Positions 3,611-35,655 of a stretch of 64,000 bases of DNA are shown piece after piece. The stretch comes from Naegleria gruberi. Its lineage: Eukaryota. The position numbers and the translations under genes are program-made. How positions within the stretch are numbered: the first letter of the stretch is position 1; every line of letters begins with the position of its first letter. The stretch lies in the NCBI GenBank assembly GCA_000004985.1, contig GG738916.1; one strand, written 5' to 3'. Under the pieces are notes generated by a model. The model saw nothing but the letters and a program-made list of their open reading frames with translations. It was not told the DNA's origin and did no database searches.

Positions 3611-6600
3611 TTATTCATAAACCTCAGCAAATTCAGTAGCACTTCTTCCAAATATTTCAGGAGTGTACATTTCCTCTGCCTTTACACTAGGAATCACAAA
3701 TGAACCAATGGATGTTGCTCTGGCAATATATGTGAATTGATGAGTGCCTTCCCATAATAGTGAAGTAAATGCTTCGACTCTTTCATCTCTAATGTTGTGA
3801 TGTTCGTACCAGATTGGATTAATCCACCAACACCAAGAATTTGGTTTGTTGGTTTTACTTCCATTGAGAGAGGAAATCTCTGGAGTTCCTTTCAATTCTG
3901 GATTGATTGGTTCGAGACCAGCTGGTAAATAGTCAACTAAGGCAACATGATATCTACGACTGGTATTTGTCATGGTCAACTTGACACGAATCAATTCTCC
4001 AGCTTTAAATCTCCAAGTATTCTTTTCCTTATCAAATGAAACATGAGAAGAATCAGTAACATGTTCATAGGTTCTTTGAACTTCAAATCCATAATCCAAT
4101 GCATCAACAAGTAAATTCTTTGGTGCATATTCCATTCCAATTCTGTAATATAATCTTCCAGGACCTTGCTTTGAGATGGCAAGAGTCTTTTTTTCATATT
4201 CCAACAAACTCATTGGAATATTTAATTGATTTTCATCCTTGGATCTTCCCTTGAACACTTGTTCTCCACAATAATCTTCACCCAACCACATGTTGGCCAC
4301 AAAATCTGGTGTCACACCTTCGAAAACATTAAAATAGGTATTGAGAGCAAGAAGAATGAAAACGTTTTCTTGAGTATTTCCCCAACGACCCTTCTTTTTG
4401 TGAGCTAGCAATCCCTTAACAATCTTTGGAATGAGATAATTGTTAGGAGTAATATTAATAAGAGCTTCTAAACAAATTCCGTCAGTTCTTCTGTCACTAT
4501 GTAACATGACATGTTTAGTTGACAGTACATCACCATAACTTGTAATAAAGTTGGCAGTTTGTGCAGTTTCATTAACATGCTTATTCAAATGTTCAATGAT
4601 TTGATTGGCTGAGGCGGTAGCTCTATTATTATTAGATAAATACATGGCAGTGGCCAACCAAGCTAAATGTTCAAAGTTTCCATTCAATTTGTAGGTTTGG
4701 TAATGTTTTTCAGCTAAATTCTTGACCTGAGAATCACCCAACAAAGCCAAAGCATAATATGCATAAGCCTTGGTAGATTTAATAGATTCCTCAGAATAAT
4801 CAAGTTCAATACAATAATTTTCAATACTTCTCAATACTGGAATTAATTTTGAGAGGGTTCCTTCATTCACTGAATATCCTGCAATCTTGGCACGTCCAAG
4901 CATGTGGCCAACATGGCAGGTCACATATGGACTGATACGATAATTATTATTATAGGACCAGTATCCAAATCCACCATTTGGAAATTGTCTTGCTTCTAAG
5001 GCAGTAAGAGCATGTTTGATATTATTATCGATTGCTTCCTTACTAGGAATTTGTTGTGAATTGAATGCAAGAAGAATGTCTTTCAAAGAAATAATGGAAA
5101 GTAATCTGCTGGAAATTTGTTCACTGCATTCGTATGGATAATTGTACAAGTATAAGAAACTGTCAGTGAGTGAAGAAAGTGCAGTAGAGCTAGTAGAAAT
5201 CTTTAAGCCTCCAAATTGAGTGAAAACATTTGGAGGAGCCTTAACAGGTTGGAAAACAGAAGAATCTCCATCCATTTCACCATAAGTGGCAAATGCTTCA
5301 GTAGTGGCAGGTGTAAATACTCTAATTTCCTTTTCAATGGCATCAGAAAAGTTAATTCCGATTGTGGCAATCGACACACCAATTTGGAATCGTGCAATAC
5401 CAACTCTATCGGTTGACATTGGGAATCTCAATTCAGTTCTTCCTAAAGCTGGAATCCTAATCTTGAGGCCCTTCTTTGACTCATCCAACAAGTTCAAATT
5501 GGTAAAATTGATAGCTGCATTTACCTCCAAATTCAATTGAGTTTGATTTTGTAAAACACATGTAAATTCTACTCTATCACCAAAGTTCAAGAATCGAGGA
5601 AGAGATGGCCTAATTGACAATGGAAGTTGAGCTATCATGGAAGATTCATGAATTCCAAAATTCCAATCACCCTTAACAGCAACTGCTGTGATTCTATATT
5701 TTGTAAGATTGTCAGGTATCTTGAATTTTACACTTGTGAATCCTTCTGCATTTGTCTTACTAGATGGACTAAAGATTGCCAATGGATTGAAATTTGATCT
5801 CACTGCAATCATTGGTTGTTCAGGTACTGGCATACCAGCAAATGCTGCACTACCAAACGCAAAGCCACCATACGATTGGACTGAAGGAGAAAATGGATCA
5901 GATGCTGGCATTTGTTGCATTTGCATTTGCATCGGATAACTATGATGATTATGAGAAAATGAAAAACCTGAGTTAGTAAGAGAAGTTCCAAACAGGGAAT
6001 TGGTGGTGGTATAAGTTTGCTCCTCTTGGAATATTATTCCCTGATAGCTCTTTACAAATACATTATTTCTGAGAGAGTAAGGTTGATAAGTAGTGTTGTA
6101 TGGTGTAACAAAGGTATCTAGTGGATTACTGATGGAGTAGTTGGTGAGAGAGAGTACAGCTTCGTCCACAGCAATGATACACACTTCACATCCTTCTTGT
6201 GGAGCTCCAGTCATTGGATCCTTAACTAGTACACTGATACTGGTTTCACTTCCAGGTGTCAAATATTCTCTTTCAGGTTTAGATTCCACAGATAAGCTTC
6301 TTGAATTTTTTGAAACCTCAATATCACAAGAACCTGATGAAAAAGCAGGTTGCTTTGGTAAATCTAAAACAGTGCCCGTGGCATCTACTCTTGATTCAGA
6401 ACCTGAGAGTTCAACACTTACTTTAACATTTGGAATGTGATCTAGAGTAATTCCAAGCTCAAATTCTGTATAACCAAGATCAGCATCAATTTGAATTGGA
6501 TATTGACGATGAATTCCATGAAGTTGTGTAAACAGTACGCCTTCAGCTTTGGAATCAAATGGAGATTGAATCAGAATCTTGGCCTTTTCTCCAACTTGAT

Positions 6601-9521
6601 ATTCTTTCTTATCTGTAAGAAGAGTGAGTTGTTTCTTCCCTATCAAAACTTCTCTTGCAGAAAATCCAGTGATAAATAAACTTGTTGATGCTTTGTTTGT
6701 TTGTCCTGTAGCAGAATCAACAATACCAATAGAAAATGAATAGTTGCCACCTTTTTCAAATTTGACAGAATATTCAATTGGTTCATTTTCCGATATGAAA
6801 ACCTTATCAATAACTTCAACAGTTTCAGAAGCATATTTGTATCCTTTCTTGACATTCACTTGAGTAGTGACTTTCAATTGGATTGGTATTCCTGAAACCA
6901 AATTTCCGTCAATATCTGTAACAATCAAAGAGGCAGTTATAGGAACATTTTGTTTTGCAAATTCTCGACTCAACTTGATTCCACAATAATATTTGCAAGG
7001 GTGAACGAGGAAGGATGCTGATGATGTCATTGTTTGTCTATTGATATCTTGAACTGTAGATTCTACAGAAATGGTGATTGGAGCCTTCTTTACACGATTA
7101 CTCTCCTCAAATGCAATTGCAATTTGGTGTTCTCCATCACCATCTGTTGTACCTTCAAAGGTTGTAACACCAACATTTGAGTTGGCCGAGAAAAGTTGCT
7201 TTACAAAGTCGTTTCCAAAGAAATTGAGAGACGTTCCAAAAGTGTATGAGGATTGATTTGGAGGAGTGTAGCTGCTGGTAGTTTGTTTGATAGTGTATCT
7301 GCATTTGGCTCCTGAAATTCCACCTCCACTATAGTAATCTGCATTGGTTGTGCAGATGGCAGATCCACCAACAATGTAATTTCCAGGTGATACTGAAGAT
7401 TTTGATTTGAACTCTGGAGTTCTAAATTCTTGAACCTTGAATGCGTGATTTGATGAAAAATCAGAGAACATAATTGTGTGACTTCCCAAGTTGGCATTAT
7501 CTGGAACTTTGAATTGAATATTAAATGTACCATCAGAGCTTAATTGTACTTTGCCTGATTCGTATCGTTGTTGTCTGGCATCTAAAATTGTGTAAGTGGA
7601 AGAATTTGTTGGAATATCAATGCTAAAAACATTTCCTTTCAAATTAAATCTTCTTACGTAACCCTTAATAGAGACAGTCTCACCTGGCTTGTACAATCCT
7701 CTATCATTGAAAATATGGGCAGTTATTTGAGGAGTAAACGCATTTCTGGCATAATATACATCTGGAATGAAACATGTGTCATGTCCATGAGTTGCTATGG
7801 CATTCAAAGAGCAGGAACCATAACTATTTCCAGAAATATTTTTAATACAACCAATTCCAGTTTTTGCATCTGGTGAACTTGTTGTATGATTATTAAAGTG
7901 GAAGGTCACATTGTCCTTAATAATACTGCCATCAATTAAGGAATTTACCCAATAGTAGGCAATTGAAGAGTTATTATCAATAACGCAATCAACTGCAATC
8001 TTCGTTGTTTGAATCCATGAAACATAACCAGGTCGAGTGTTCCATGAAGCTTTCCAGCTATTCATTTCAGCTTCAACAACCACCAACAATTGGCCAATGC
8101 TCTCAGATGGATACTGAAGATATTCTTGAAGATTAATTTCAGTTTCGACTGGTTCGTCAACTTCTCCCTTTGTTGATATGATTCCATCATAAACTAGAGT
8201 GCCAGGATATTTAATGGTAGCGTCTGTTTGGAATCTGAGTACTGAATGATTGAACATCGTGGATGGATTGACCTGGTAAACCCTGCAACGTACAGCATCC
8301 AAATTTACAGTTACAATAGGATAAGATGGACTTGGATTCAATGTTGGATCCATAACAATAACACCGGTTTTGAATGCTTGGATTGATTGGCGTGCACCTT
8401 TAACTTGAAATTCTACAGTAAGGTCTTTAAGCACTTGCCCCCAAACATCGACAAGATTCTTTACGAAAACCTTGTATGTTGTTCTTCCTTTGATTTTACC
8501 TGAGATGCTAATACTATTTCCAAATGGATTTAATGACATCCGTTCAATTGGTGGTGAAACAGTGAACATATTTTCTGTCAATTTTTCCAAATCAATGCCA
8601 GTTGTGAATTGCAAACTAAAAGCTTGCATTGGGAGCTCTCCTCCATACTTTTTGATAAACTCGAACGCAGGATAATTATTTACAGTGGTGATATGAGAAT
8701 GTAGTGTTGGCAATGGTCCTTCTGTTCCTGTAACTCCGCTCATGATACTCACCTTTACAGAGTTTCCAAAAAGATAATTACTAACATGGAACCACAAATG
8801 TCGTTTCTCTGGAGCATTTTTGAGTTTTCGTTTGTAAGCTTCATAAGTATGATAATCCCTCTTCTCCAAGTCGAAATCTTTGAGTGCTTTGAGGATGAAC
8901 TCCTGTACGAGAGGATTTGAACTCTTGCCGTCATGAATTAAGGTGGCTAAATTACTATTCTCATTAATTGAAATGAATTTGATAACTTCACTTGGATCAA
9001 TGTCTTGATCGAATTCTAAATAGTAAATTGGAACTTCATTCAGAGGATGAATAGTGTGATCAGAAGGAAGGGAGCTGATTAAAGATAATCTTGGAGTTTC
9101 AAAACTAAATGTCAAATCTTCTTTCAAAATTCCTCCAATTTCTGATTTGGTTCCCTTCTTAACAGTGACTGTATACTTGGTGGACATGTCAAATCTGTAT
9201 TTGGCTGCGTAAACTAGAGTTTTTGTGCCCAACCATTTGAATTGACCTCCTTTTTTTGGAAGAGGAGAAACATCCACTGGAACTGTATCCATTACTTCAT
9301 CAATACTGCTGACAGGAACCATCGGTTGAGAGAAGGTAATAGTGATCGATGGCACTGAACGATCCAACACACCTTCAGGCGAATAACGAATCACACTCAA
9401 CTCTGATCCTAAAATCTTTTCCTCCTCTTCAATCAATTCTTTTGGTTTCTCCAAATTCATTTCCGGTGGAAAGGGTACATTATTGATCTCTGCAGTAATT
9501 GGTGCTTTCAACGATTTTTCT
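3611..9521 (-). CDS. Alpha-2-macroglobulin family thioester-containing protein of bacterial type. Intronless, about 1970 aa, with no ATG of its own.
   Basis: Thioester-region motif YNYPYECSEQ is CxEQ type, not the metazoan GCGEQ. The N-terminal Ig-like module has ITFSQPMVPV. The A2M_comp-like segment has ARQFPNGGFGYWS. The C-terminal module DERVEAF...YIARATSIGSFVIPSVKAEEMYTPEIFGRSATE resembles the last domain of bacterial A2Ms. The track's M at 9511 is actually TTG (plus strand 9509-9511 = caa). The frame is open upstream only to a TGA at about 9536. There is no ATG and no signal peptide. Confidence 0.6.
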
Positions 9522-9552
9522 CTTTGATTAATTCATAATATAAGATATTAAA

Positions 9553-11301
9553 TTATTTAAATTGTAAATTATTATTGTAAAAGAAAACAAACCTCATGAA
9601 GAAATCCTTGCAATCATCCACTTCAGATGCAATATTCGGAAGTCTATTCAATAATTGGCTAGTTTCATTTGCTGACAAACTTTCAATATTTGATGACACA
9701 TCACCACCACCTGATGATGATCCAATATTTACTTTTTCCATCATCATGATCAATGATCGGGTTGTGTCCTCTGCAGTAGGTTCTCTAACAGTCAACTTTA
9801 AGCCATTATTTATGTTGTTCATCATGGAAGAAGCACCACCAAACAAATTAACACCACCGAAAGGAGGAGTTGTTGGAGATAGTTGTGATGGATAGCCACC
9901 ACCAAATAAAACAGAATTTACAGAGGGTAGTTGTGAAAACATTTTTTTGGTATTTTGTTTTGTGAGATGGTGAACCTTTTGAAGGTAATGGTGAACTTGA
10001 AAGTGTACGAAATAGAAGATTAACAGAACATTTTTAATATCCTCTAACAATTGTTTCAATTCCTCACTGCCATCAAATGGTTCGTCTCTGTAGCCAAGTT
10101 GCAGGTCAAAGTTGCCCATTTTCATCAAGCCATGAAACCAACTGTTTGTGAAAAAGTACAATCTTGGAATAGAATATAAAATATTGAGATAGGTTTGGTG
10201 TCGTGTGAATGTAGTTTCGTCTGGAATGGTAACATTTATACCATTCTTTTCCCAAATTGGGACGATAATTTCTATTACTTTGGATCTGACTTGTTTATCA
10301 TCAAATGATGTTTCCATATCTGAAACGGGCATGTCCTTGTTCAGCATTTCTAAAAGACAGGCCCAATGAGCTAGAGTTTCACACTCCTTTACAACTGAAG
10401 TGAATCTGCTTTGTGGCCAATCAAGAACGGCAGATACCTTTGCTGTATCTAAGGATGCATTGCTTTTGATCATTATATTCGATGCATTCAAATCACAATG
10501 ACAAAATTGATAGACATTAGGATCTTCCACTCCATCATCTGTATGCAACAGTTTGGATTTCAAATCAAGAAGAGGTTCTGAATGAAGAGAAACAAAATCA
10601 AGATAATGAGGATAATGAACTTGTTCTCCAGTATTCGAAATTTGATTCAGAGTGAAATCTATTTGCTCAATGACCATTTCTTTCAAATTCTTGAAAGGTC
10701 CCAATGGAGCACAATCACCAACAATTACTCCAAGAGAACTCTTTTCACTTCCCAACAAGGATCCAACTTGATAATCATCCTTCTTATTCTCGGAATTTGT
10801 GTGTAATTTTCCAACAATAACGATCAACTCCTCAAGAAGCTGAACTTTCTGTTTGATTGAGAGAAATCTCCAAGAGTTTGCCAAAGTTTGTCCTTTTGCC
10901 CTCTCTTGCAAAATATATTCGCAACCAAGAGGGGACTCTTCAGCATTATCTGAATAGGAAACAATTTTAGGTGTTGGTATTCCAGCTTTCTCAGCAAATA
11001 GAATGCATTTGACTTCATTCCGAACAGAAATTCCTTTCCAGAAAGTGTGACAATTGGAAATTCGCAAAACCAGTTCAACACCTTCGAGAGTTCCCTCTCT
11101 AACAGCTCGGATCATGAATATTGAATTGATGACTCCTCCAGATTCTTCAAACTTATAAAATTCTTTGAAAATCAAATGGTGTTGTTGTAAGAGAAGAGGA
11201 AGAGTATGTGTGAAATTCTCCAACAAATTATTCATTATTTGATGGTATTTAGTTTCTTGTTCAGAGAAGGTGGGATGGTGGAGAGTAATGCGAGATGACA
11301 T
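9553..11301 (-). CDS. Protein with an APH/choline-kinase-like phosphotransferase domain and a low-complexity FG/Ser-rich tail. Possibly the 5' exon of the downstream A2M ORF.
   Basis: True ATG at 11299-11301. Kinase-like catalytic loop HCDLNASNIMI (HxDxxxxN) and VLDWPQS (D-x-W/F metal-binding-like motif). C-terminal 150 aa low complexity (LFGGGYPSQLSPTTPPFGGVNLFGGA...). A GTTTGT donor 10 codons before its stop is in frame with the A2M ORF (see findings). Confidence 0.5.
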   Translation of the reverse strand: MSSRITLHHPTFSEQETKYHQIMNNLLENFTHTLPLLLQQHHLIFKEFYKFEESGGVINSIFMIRAVREGTLEGVELVLRISNCHTFWKGISVRNEVKCILFAEKAGIPTPKIVSYSDNAEESPLGCEYILQERAKGQTLANSWRFLSIKQKVQLLEELIVIVGKLHTNSENKKDDYQVGSLLGSEKSSLGVIVGDCAPLGPFKNLKEMVIEQIDFTLNQISNTGEQVHYPHYLDFVSLHSEPLLDLKSKLLHTDDGVEDPNVYQFCHCDLNASNIMIKSNASLDTAKVSAVLDWPQSRFTSVVKECETLAHWACLLEMLNKDMPVSDMETSFDDKQVRSKVIEIIVPIWEKNGINVTIPDETTFTRHQTYLNILYSIPRLYFFTNSWFHGLMKMGNFDLQLGYRDEPFDGSEELKQLLEDIKNVLLIFYFVHFQVHHYLQKVHHLTKQNTKKMFSQLPSVNSVLFGGGYPSQLSPTTPPFGGVNLFGGASSMMNNINNGLKLTVREPTAEDTTRSLIMMMEKVNIGSSSGGGDVSSNIESLSANETSQLLNRLPNIASEVDDCKDFFMRFVFFYNNNLQFK

Positions 11302-34259: not shown

Positions 34260-35655
34260 ATGAAATTGTTATCTGAAACCATTCGAAAAAAAATGGCTAA
34301 ACTTCAACATCCAACCACCTTGTTGGTGATGGCTGGCTATTTGATCGTATCCTTCTTGTGTAGTTTCTTGTTACTTTCGAATAGTGTCACTTGCATGTAC
34401 GATGATTTTCAACAAAATTCTTGGGATCAAGTTCCTGTTCAAACCAGAGAAATGATTTCGAATATTAATTCTCAACCATCAGCATCTTGGCAAGCCGTTG
34501 AATATCCTCAATTTAAAGGTAAAAGTTTGGCTGACATGACCAATGTAAGTTGTCAAAAAAATAATTTTTAATTCATTAAACAGTACTTTGACAGTTACTT
34601 GGTGCTTTGAACGTCAATGAAAACGATTTGAAAGGAGAGGTCATGGATAAAGATAATAGCACTAACACTCCTTTGAGCGATTCAAGATATTTAACAATTT
34701 TACGTTTGCGAGATTTTCCAACTCAATTCGATGCTAGAGAACAATGGCCACAATGTATTAGATCGATTAAAAATCAAAAGAATTGTGGATCTTGTTGGGC
34801 AGTAAGTTAATCTTGATGAATTTGTGTGGATAATTGGATCATGAATAGTTTTCTGTAAGTTGTTTTAATTGTGTGGTTGGTTGACTTGAATATCTCAATA
34901 GGCAAGTAGTGTTTTGGCTGATAGATTTTGTATTAAGAGTGGAGGAAAGGTTAATGTCGATCTTTCTCCTCAATTCATGGTTTCATGCAGTGGACAAAAC
35001 AATGGATGTAATGGTAAGTAGTTTACAATTTCACCAAAAAAATTGAATATTTGAAAATTAGGTGGTTTCTTTGATGCTACTTGGAGATTTTTAGTTTCTG
35101 TTGGAACAGTATCTGAAGCATGTGTTCCGTATGTTTCCTTTGGAGGCGCAGTCCCTGCATGTAATGTCAAATCTTGTGGTGTTCCAGGTCAAAAGTCACC
35201 ATTTTACAGAGCTGGTTCTGCAAGAAAACTTGAAGGAATGCTTGATATTATGGCAGATTTGAAGGCAAATGGACCTATACAAGTTGCCATGGGCGTATAC
35301 AGAGATTTCTACTCCTATAAGTCTGGTGTTTATCATCATGTGTCTGGAAGATATGTCGGTGGTCATGCTGTCAAAATTGTTGGGTAAGTTTTTGGATATT
35401 TTTCAAAGATTTTAACAGTAGCAGGTGGGGATATGATTCTGCCTCCAAGCTTCCTTATTGGATTTGTGCTAATTCTTGGGGAGAAGGTTTGTTTTTTCAT
35501 TCAGAATTAGAAAATTGTAATTTCAAAATAATTTCTAATAATTTCAATATAATTTTACAAAAGATTGGGGAATTAAAGGATATTTTTGGATCTTGAGAGG
35601 CCGTGGAGAATGTGGAATTGGAAAAATGGTTTGGTCTGGTAAGCCAGCTTTGTAA
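34260..35655 (+). CDS. Cathepsin B-like papain-family cysteine protease, six exons: join(34260..34544,34595..34801,34902..35013,35062..35383,35425..35486,35564..35655)
   Basis: Signal anchor. Active-site Cys context [20 protein letters not shown], His context [11 protein letters not shown], and Asn/Trp context [26 protein letters not shown]. Introns of 50, 100, 48, 41 and 77 nt with donors GTAAGT (x4) and GTTTGT (x1). All junction phases are consistent. Confidence 0.75.

Follow-up and report, generated by a model that had tools for sequence, protein, structure and literature searches.

A bacterial-type, thioester-bearing alpha-2-macroglobulin gene in Naegleria gruberi: gene structure, probable old bacterial origin and a putative cytosolic protease trap

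How does a eukaryote come to carry a very long gene for a protein of bacterial type, and where in the cell would such a protein act? These questions are raised by a 64,000-nucleotide (nt) stretch of Naegleria gruberi DNA (GenBank assembly GCA_000004985.1, contig GG738916.1), hereafter the window, whose minus strand holds an uninterrupted frame of 1966 codons (3611-9511; first codon TTG, stop codon 3611-3613). An initial annotation, made from the letters of the DNA, had described this frame, rightly as to its length of about 5.9 kb and its TTG first codon, as an intronless alpha-2-macroglobulin (A2M) of the bacterial ECAM/YfhM type, and had taken it for either a recent bacterial transfer or an unusual intracellular thioester protein. 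We found that the frame is exon 2 of a two-exon N. gruberi gene encoding a bacterial-type A2M of about 2050-2086 amino acids (aa) with an intact thioester motif. We regard it as likely that the gene product is an ancient bacterial-type A2M which has lost its secretion signal and is a putative cytosolic protease trap; its identity as an A2M and its old bacterial origin, taken by themselves, can be held with high confidence.

The gene and its product

The 1966-codon frame is 100% identical to a public protein of N. gruberi strain NEG-M (XP_002670374.1/EFC37630.1; P0001), whose annotated start is the in-frame ATG at codon 18 (9460). This start sits 137 codons downstream of a homology-supported ATG at 9942 and leaves exon 1 out, and the public model is N-terminally truncated, its first exon being absent. 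The earlier statements that the gene is intronless and lacks a start codon were thus both contradicted, the former by a 71-nt intron that joins the frame to exon 1 and the latter by the ATG at codon 18 and by the upstream candidates at 9942 and 9825. The parts of the gene and of its product are as follows (positions are those of the window; ORF denotes the 1966-codon open reading frame).

9593..9942, minus strand: exon 1, 116 codons plus 2 bases, from ATG 9942 (MFSQLPS) or the alternative ATG 9825 (MMNNINNG)
9522..9592, minus strand: intron of 71 nt, phase 2, GT..AG, matched in position and phase in a N. fowleri group-B paralogue
3611..9521, minus strand: exon 2, the remainder of the coding sequence; the 1966-codon frame lies in it, and the stop codon occupies 3611-3613
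9095..9358, minus strand (ORF aa 52-139): Big_5 bacterial Ig-like domain, holding ITFSQPMV (Pfam PF13205, E 2.6e-6)
7460..7720, minus strand (ORF aa 598-684): MG2 macroglobulin domain (Pfam PF01835, E 1e-14)
6146..6628, minus strand (ORF aa 962-1122): A2M_BRD bait-region domain (Pfam PF07703, E 8e-20)
5813..6028, minus strand: hypervariable bait core of 72 aa, rich in Q, M, S, F and G, with no Cys
5519..5779, minus strand (ORF aa 1245-1331): A2M (MG7) domain after the bait (Pfam PF00207, E 3.4e-15)
4322..5170, minus strand, approximate limits: thioester domain (TED), predicted alpha/alpha toroid (helices 311-593 of the AlphaFold model; ECAM alignment)
5117..5128, minus strand: thioester motif C-S-E-Q in the context YNYPYECSEQISSR (translation)
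3656..4090, minus strand (ORF aa 1808-1952): bMG10, 'Bacterial alpha-2-macroglobulin MG10', the MG8 equivalent (Pfam PF17973, E 1.2e-32)

With the GT..AG intron removed, the frame continues in phase from the 3' part of an upstream open frame. On the minus strand the junction reads ...TTCATGAG / GTTTGT...(71 nt)...ATCAAAG / AGAAAAATCGTTG, the intron falling after the second base of an arginine codon, and splicing yields a peptide (...LSANETSQLLNRLPNIASEVDDCKDFFM-R-EKSLKAPITAEINN...) whose junction matches that of the N. gruberi paralogue P0002 as annotated (...DFFMREKSLKAPITAEINS...), with DFFMREKSLKAP as the junction peptide in both. The upstream in-frame TGA reported earlier is real (9533-9535), though it lies eight codons from the frame, not nine, and inside the intron. 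The spliced N-terminus aligns unbroken across the junction to the N. fowleri protein P0003 (55% identity over 121 aa, E 1e-28) and also to the bacterial homologue P0039 (40% over 84 aa, E 3e-12), so that the intron interrupts sequence that is continuous in bacteria. Exon 1 encodes a GLKLTVREP...LSANETSQLLNRLP...DFFM segment that is conserved with the bacterial proteins, where it corresponds to the N-terminal segment 'GL.F.LSEG ... LS..E...LL.R[LI]P ... DF..R'. The model comprises 2086 aa from ATG 9942 or 2047 aa from ATG 9825, and the N. fowleri group-B protein has a similar start (MFLPNNP...). The gene of the latter is interrupted at that very codon, and in the same phase, by a GT..AG intron of 272 nt (L004 2755-3026), and the N. 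fowleri group-C paralogue (L002 4001-10297) is a single uninterrupted frame; as the intron position is common to groups A and B and absent from group C, the intron predates the A/B split. An intron-free stretch as long as exon 2 is not distinctive here, since other long open frames in the window run to 1323, 1191 and 1093 codons; the cathepsin B gene that had served for comparison is multi-exon as described (at least 6 exon pieces, ~34290-35655, plus strand; CGSCW active-site motif at 34784).

Several features read from the translation at the outset were borne out. The N-terminal Ig-like module around ITFSQPMV is a Pfam Big_5 domain (28.6 bits, against a Pfam cut-off of 23.6), the C-terminal DERVEAF...EEMYTPEIFGRSA block, said to be bacterial-like, lies within Pfam bMG10, and re-inspection of the thioester site confirmed the context YNYPYECSEQ, not GCGEQ. 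The C, E and Q of the thioester do not vary among nine eukaryotic copies, the context YP[YF]ECxEQxxSR is found in nearly all of ~195 bacterial homologues as in the window protein, and the CSEQ aligns with GCLEQ of ECAM. A second tetrapeptide, C-G-E-Q (WLGEDYCGEQVF), occurs at 4259-4270 on the same strand and is kept by every Heterolobosea copy in groups A-C; as a thioester it was rejected, being outside the TED and having its Cys replaced by Ala in the bacterial homologues and in P0009, a protein of an uncultured organism. No C.EQ motif occurs in P0249, a divergent group-D protein of Willaertia magna, whereas P0251, its counterpart in N. fowleri, retains YPYECTEQ; one or more eukaryotic lineages have thus lost the thioester.

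An AlphaFold model of the C-terminal 829 aa, built on an alignment of 39 rows (mean predicted local distance difference test score, pLDDT, 78), gave a disordered bait followed by the order MG7-CUB-TED-MG8, that is, beta domains, a helical toroid taken as the TED, and a final beta domain. Foldseek retrieved 169 PDB matches for this model at E<=1e-3, and the best 50 of the 169 were all A2M, C3, C5, TEP or CD109 chains; Salmonella A2M (4u48) and ECAM (5a42/4ziq) ranked at the top with 19-20% identity and E 1e-34, followed by C5, C3, CD109, A2ML1 and TEP1 at 11-15%. By Pfam and the predicted fold together, the MG domains, the bait-region domain, the CUB-TED-MG8 module and a C-x-E-Q within the TED place the protein in the A2M/TEP/C3 superfamily, and its C-terminal bMG10 and best full-length similarity to bacterial proteins place it in the bacterial type (COG2373). 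No NCBIfam family matches the window protein or a bacterial homologue.

ECAM/YfhM and Salmonella A2M are periplasmic, thioester-bearing protease traps. They were the sole matches in a sequence search of solved structures (E. coli ECAM, E 4e-17), which returned no metazoan A2M, C3, TEP or CD109 chain at E<=1e-3, and no other solved structures come as near in either sequence or fold (PDB 4ziq, 5a42, 4rtd, 4u48), with an aligned CxEQ thioester and the same order of bait, MG7 (which aligns to ECAM from residue 938 onward), CUB, TED and C-terminal MG domain. The designation 'ECAM/YfhM type' nevertheless holds only loosely: the ECAM match amounts to 64 bits at 19-20% identity and is limited to ORF aa 1253-1959, the C-terminal ~700 aa, as against ~1250 bits for a bacterial family of ~2050 aa described below. 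ECAM is a lipoprotein of ~1650 aa, and the window protein, at 2047-2086 aa, is ~400 aa longer at the N-terminus, where it carries Big_5; an N-terminal lipobox and whole-length similarity at ~1650 aa are absent. Budd et al. are said to have found in 2004 that the ECAM gene usually stands beside pbpC (penicillin-binding protein 1C); around our bacterial relatives a transglycosylase/transpeptidase gene (pbpC) was present in none of three neighbourhoods, the A2M being a stand-alone gene in all three. Type 2 bacterial A2Ms (YfaS/MagD) have no thioester motif and are encoded in a yfaSTPQ/mag operon; the window protein differs in having the thioester, no such operon surrounds the bacterial relatives, and the JGI label 'YfaS' on homologues is a COG name only. 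Metazoan A2M, C3/C4/C5, CD109 and insect TEP1 share the superfamily fold and, by analogy, presumably the thioester chemistry, but they have GCGEQ, signal peptides and no bMG10-type C-terminal domain, whereas the window protein has ECSEQ and no signal peptide; at 11-15% identity they show no sequence-level match to it. The window protein thus belongs with the thioester-bearing A2Ms of bacterial type but is only distantly related to ECAM, and it is neither YfaS/MagD-like nor metazoan-type.

Bacterial relatives and a single eukaryotic clade

The best non-amoebal relatives are A2Ms of ~2000-2100 aa from Acidobacteria (Pyrinomonadaceae, Blastocatellia, Chloracidobacterium), Myxococcota and some Chloroflexi, which matched at ~1250 bits with 35-37% identity over 98-100% of the query, and with 45-50% identity in the C-terminal third. 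This family is colinear with the window protein and shares with it the same Pfam domain set and thioester context; its bait has a median length of 91 aa (101 aa in the window protein). Its members differ in beginning with a signal peptide, in many cases followed at once by a Cys (lipoprotein-like); such a signal is missing from the window protein and from every eukaryotic copy, and the eukaryotic gene, for its part, shows host codon usage and contains an intron. The source labels of the bacterial proteins are 'Ig-like domain-containing protein', 'YfaS (alpha-2-macroglobulin family)' or COG2373, and in the literature searched we found no experimentally studied member of the family.

Among eukaryotes the relatives are a paralogue in N. 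gruberi that is 74% identical, 3-4 paralogues in N. fowleri, and copies in N. lovaniensis (two) and W. magna (four). The amoebozoan Sappinia pedata contributes a complete transcript, and uncultured organisms two proteins. One of these last, P0009 (38% identity; L001 10001-16096), is encoded on a 146-kb contig together with the eukaryotic genes RdRP, RGS/GPS and Tudor-SN. A neighbour-joining tree of 78 sequences (1891 columns) grouped the 13 eukaryotic sequences included in one bipartition in 100 of 100 bootstraps, and gave values of 100 for Heterolobosea and for each of the Naegleria paralogue groups A, B and C. A second neighbour-joining tree, with 16 eukaryotic sequences, distant bacterial A2Ms including ECAM-like proteins as outgroups, and 80 bootstraps, again recovered a single eukaryotic clade (80/80), which lay inside a bacterial clade (80/80) with further bacterial lineages outside it (78/80). 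Since the eukaryotic clade is nested within bacterial diversity, horizontal acquisition, as originally suggested, is the best reading.

The simplest reading of these data is one old transfer from a bacterium to a eukaryote, followed by vertical descent in Heterolobosea; the Sappinia copy then requires either great age with many losses or spread between eukaryotes. Under this scenario, the donor would have been a secreted or lipoprotein A2M of the ~2000-aa family that is now found mainly in Acidobacteria and Myxococcota. After the transfer the signal peptide would have been lost and the remaining mature bacterial protein kept colinear, the common ancestor of groups A and B would have acquired an intron, and codon usage would have become fully host-like. 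The family would also have expanded, its paralogues diverging most in the bait region, into a clade found only in eukaryotes and comprising at least four paralogue groups in Naegleria and Willaertia as well as the copies of Sappinia and of two uncultured eukaryotes.

An A2M-like protein in an amoeboid eukaryote has one precedent in the literature searched. Elias and Novotny (2008; PMC2430557) described Dictyostelium DdiCPRas2 and a second COG2373-like protein, for which horizontal gene transfer from prokaryotes was proposed. DdiCPRas2 carries a Ras-like GTPase (cpRAS) domain ~775 aa from its C-terminus, which, to judge from the published coordinates (PMC2430557), would be the bait location in the window protein. 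By the published description it is 3933 aa long with a long unrelated N-terminal half, whereas the window protein has no Ras domain by Pfam; the name 'ras GTPase domain-containing protein' given to XP_002670374.1 is misleading and was probably derived from similarity to Dictyostelium CPRas2.

Bait region, cellular location and proposed action

The stretch between A2M_BRD and MG7 is the only strongly divergent part of the protein: mean pairwise identity in the bait is 15% vs 54% for the rest, and the window bait is 18% identical to that of a paralogue that is 73% identical overall. The bait is disordered in the AlphaFold model (pLDDT ~30-37). In P0009 it contains a complete ubiquitin (57 of 76 residues identical, ending LRLRGG-A; at ~L001 13700-13915), placed between A2M_BRD (1026-1187) and MG7 (1335-1415). 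This ubiquitin possibly acts as a lure to deubiquitinases or to ubiquitin-like proteases. When the P0009 bait-plus-ubiquitin segment was used as query, polyubiquitins dominated the best 150 matches.

Other baits are of different composition. In the window gene, exon 1 (9593-9942) and the bait (5813-6028) contain FG- and GG-type motifs (LFGGG, PFGG, LFGG, LFGT, GFSF, GGFAFGSAAFAG), and a PMQMQMQQMP run stands in the low-complexity sequence of exon 1 and bait, with a similar run in the Willaertia protein P0007 (PIQMQMQMQMPM). Dense cysteine strings (e.g. CCRFARACSSCANCCFEDCMNECCCCDDLCCQCACCGDGC) mark the baits of P0002, P0003, P0211/P0004, P0121 and P0122, and none occurs in the window copy; were these proteins cytosolic, the strings would point to multiple palmitoylation or to metal binding.

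Signal peptides were scored as the best 11-aa hydropathy within the first 70 residues. This value was at most 1.83 in the window model and in all 15 other eukaryotic copies, none of which has a hydrophobic N-terminus, as opposed to a median of 2.67 in the bacterial homologues, 86% of which exceeded 2.0 and most of whose exceptions resemble truncated gene calls. No transmembrane-like stretch was found anywhere in the window model (best 19-aa value 1.36). The cathepsin B gene of the same window has a classical hydrophobic signal peptide and served as a control that Naegleria uses such peptides. The absence of a signal peptide from the window protein, claimed at the outset, was accordingly upheld, and of the accompanying proposal of an unusual intracellular thioester protein, the part concerning the missing signal stood (16 of 16 eukaryotic copies without one, against 86% of bacteria with one), the location itself being plausible. 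Because no eukaryotic copy has a signal peptide or membrane segment, a cytosolic site suggests itself, and the ubiquitin and GTPase insertions in relatives point the same way; on such sequence features, we judge the case for the clade acting in the cytosol to be about evenly balanced.

The alternative that fares best, though we consider it doubtful, is that the protein inhibits proteases outside the cell or at its surface, leaving by means of a signal peptide encoded in an unannotated exon or along an unconventional path, for instance in vesicles. It has in its favour that every characterised A2M or TEP, to our knowledge, acts outside the cytoplasm, that the 5' end of the window gene was deduced from sequence with an open frame upstream, and that the Cys-rich baits of paralogues could form disulfides. 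Set against these are the 16 independent eukaryotic gene models or transcripts without a hydrophobic N-terminus, including the Sappinia transcript marked complete; the APH-like frame immediately upstream of exon 1, whose own N-terminus is likewise hydrophilic; and the cytosolic modules of relatives, namely the ubiquitin in the P0009 bait and the GTPase in the Dictyostelium protein.

In ECAM and Salmonella A2M systems, cutting of the bait leads to a rearrangement, and the exposed thioester couples to a nucleophile of the protease. If the window protein acts similarly, a protease would cut the disordered bait, and the ensuing rearrangement would let the buried Cys-Gln thioester react with a protease nucleophile, tethering and caging the protease; by analogy with these systems we think such protease-trap chemistry rather probable, and the disordered, hypervariable bait and the conserved thioester residues lend it indirect support. 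In the cytosol the targets would be proteases of ingested or intracellular bacteria or other microbes, giant-virus proteases, or leaked lysosomal cathepsins. A more speculative extension, which we put forward tentatively and think unlikely as it stands, is that amoeboid eukaryotes have turned a periplasmic protease trap of bacteria into a clade of cytosolic thioester macroglobulins, in which the bait is an interchangeable 'integrated decoy' aimed at the enzymes of pathogens living inside the cell. Ubiquitin, the Ras-like GTPase of Dictyostelium, the cysteine strings and the Q/M/FG-rich stretch of the window copy would then be baits, and cleavage of the decoy would fire the thioester so that the effector is covalently captured.

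We know of no studied thioester macroglobulin (A2M, complement C3/C4, insect TEPs, CD109 or bacterial ECAM) that works inside the cytoplasm. A cytosolic clade would thus extend thioester defence chemistry both to a cellular compartment and to a part of the tree of life in which it would be new, and the decoy idea, if true, would amount to an intracellular, complement-like innate immune device outside animals. The gene also offers a clean, datable transfer from bacterium to eukaryote in which signal-peptide loss, intron gain, amelioration and paralogue expansion are all visible, and three or four paralogues occur in the pathogen N. fowleri, where protease biology bears on virulence. As regards precedence, the protein is already in public databases and the Dictyostelium transfer was proposed in 2008 (PMC2430557), and the literature searched contained no paper on a Naegleria A2M or citing its accession numbers. 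Four results appear to be new: the gene model as corrected here, the finding that the eukaryotic copies form one clade of their own within a particular bacterial family, the signal-peptide loss consistently seen in that clade, and the way in which the baits have diversified, the ubiquitin bait included.

Several points weigh against the picture of an ancient A2M that is now a cytosolic protease trap. (i) The Pfam thioester-domain model stayed below significance on the window protein, so that the domain was recognised through the ECAM alignment and predicted fold alone. (ii) The trees are distance trees by neighbour-joining only, and shared AT-rich composition together with long branches could inflate the monophyly of the eukaryotes. 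(iii) The immediate bacterial sister of the eukaryotic clade received 45-48/80 support, and hence the donor phylum is not assignable. (iv) The start codon is predicted, as the exon 1 ATG at 9942 or 9825, from homology only, and the APH-like frame upstream enters exon 1 in the same reading frame with no stop codon between, which leaves the 5' end of the A2M gene not fully settled. (v) An absent signal peptide does not exclude unconventional secretion. (vi) We know of no precedent for a thioester that faces millimolar cytosolic thiols after activation.

The adjoining frame and the remaining explanations

The APH-like frame runs from 11301 to 9553 on the minus strand, is open for 582 aa and contains a Pfam APH (phosphotransferase, kinase-fold) domain; its own N-terminus is hydrophilic. 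Either the APH gene ends via an unrecognised splice, or APH and A2M are co-transcribed or fused. A fusion would give a single polypeptide of ~2540 aa, made up of the 582-aa APH-like frame and the A2M. Continuity of frame into exon 1 without a preceding stop, and the mere ~100 nt between the conserved parts of the two (9943-10040), are compatible with this, but the linking segment is C/T-rich, then A-rich, and resembles an untranslated leader, and P0003 and P0211 of N. fowleri, three Willaertia copies, the N. lovaniensis protein and P0009 all start just upstream of 'L..VREP' with no APH. We therefore consider a fusion improbable. Two of the three bacterial neighbourhoods examined have a Ser/Thr protein-kinase gene no more than a few kb from the A2M (L007 337-2322, L008 4664-6109). 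Co-transfer of the APH-like gene with the A2M, hinted at by these kinase neighbours, was rejected, the N. fowleri loci having different neighbours, and the bacterial kinase neighbours and the APH adjacency in the window are probably a coincidence.

A recent transfer from a bacterium to an amoeba, specific to N. gruberi, could be excluded to a very small residual probability. The 5.9-kb frame without an intron and the bacterial affinity of the closest non-amoebal relatives had made it attractive, but the codon comparison with other frames of the window disclosed no foreign signature: GC content at third codon positions (GC3) is 0.274 in the frame, against a range of 0.224-0.401 in 25 other long window frames, and its relative synonymous codon usage (RSCU) correlates with that of the pooled host frames at r = 0.97, the highest of the frames tested. 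Against recency there are further (i) the intron at the 5' end, at a position common to a N. fowleri paralogue, (ii) the orthologues and paralogues across Naegleria and Willaertia, at 47-74% identity, (iii) a best bacterial identity of just 35-37%, and (iv) the single clade that holds all eukaryotic copies.

Equally remote is a vertically inherited eukaryotic protein of the TEP/CD109/C3 type. Best matches or a tree position inside eukaryotic TEP/CD109 had been named beforehand as what would overturn a bacterial affinity; when looked for, the matches and the tree placement were bacterial. The overall MG-CUB-TED fold is the same as in C3, C5, CD109 and TEP1, yet no metazoan A2M, C3 or TEP chain is reached by sequence at the threshold given above, the motif is ECSEQ instead of GCGEQ, the C-terminal domain fits the bacterial MG10 model (E 1e-32), and colinearity with the bacterial proteins extends over the full length, by which this explanation is refuted. 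Bacterial contamination or mis-assembly, for which the bacterial affinity of the protein and nothing further speaks, was rejected as the least probable of all, given that eukaryotic genes of the same base composition flank the gene on the same contig, that it contains an intron of spliceosomal type, and that its N. fowleri orthologues sit in eukaryotic gene neighbourhoods.

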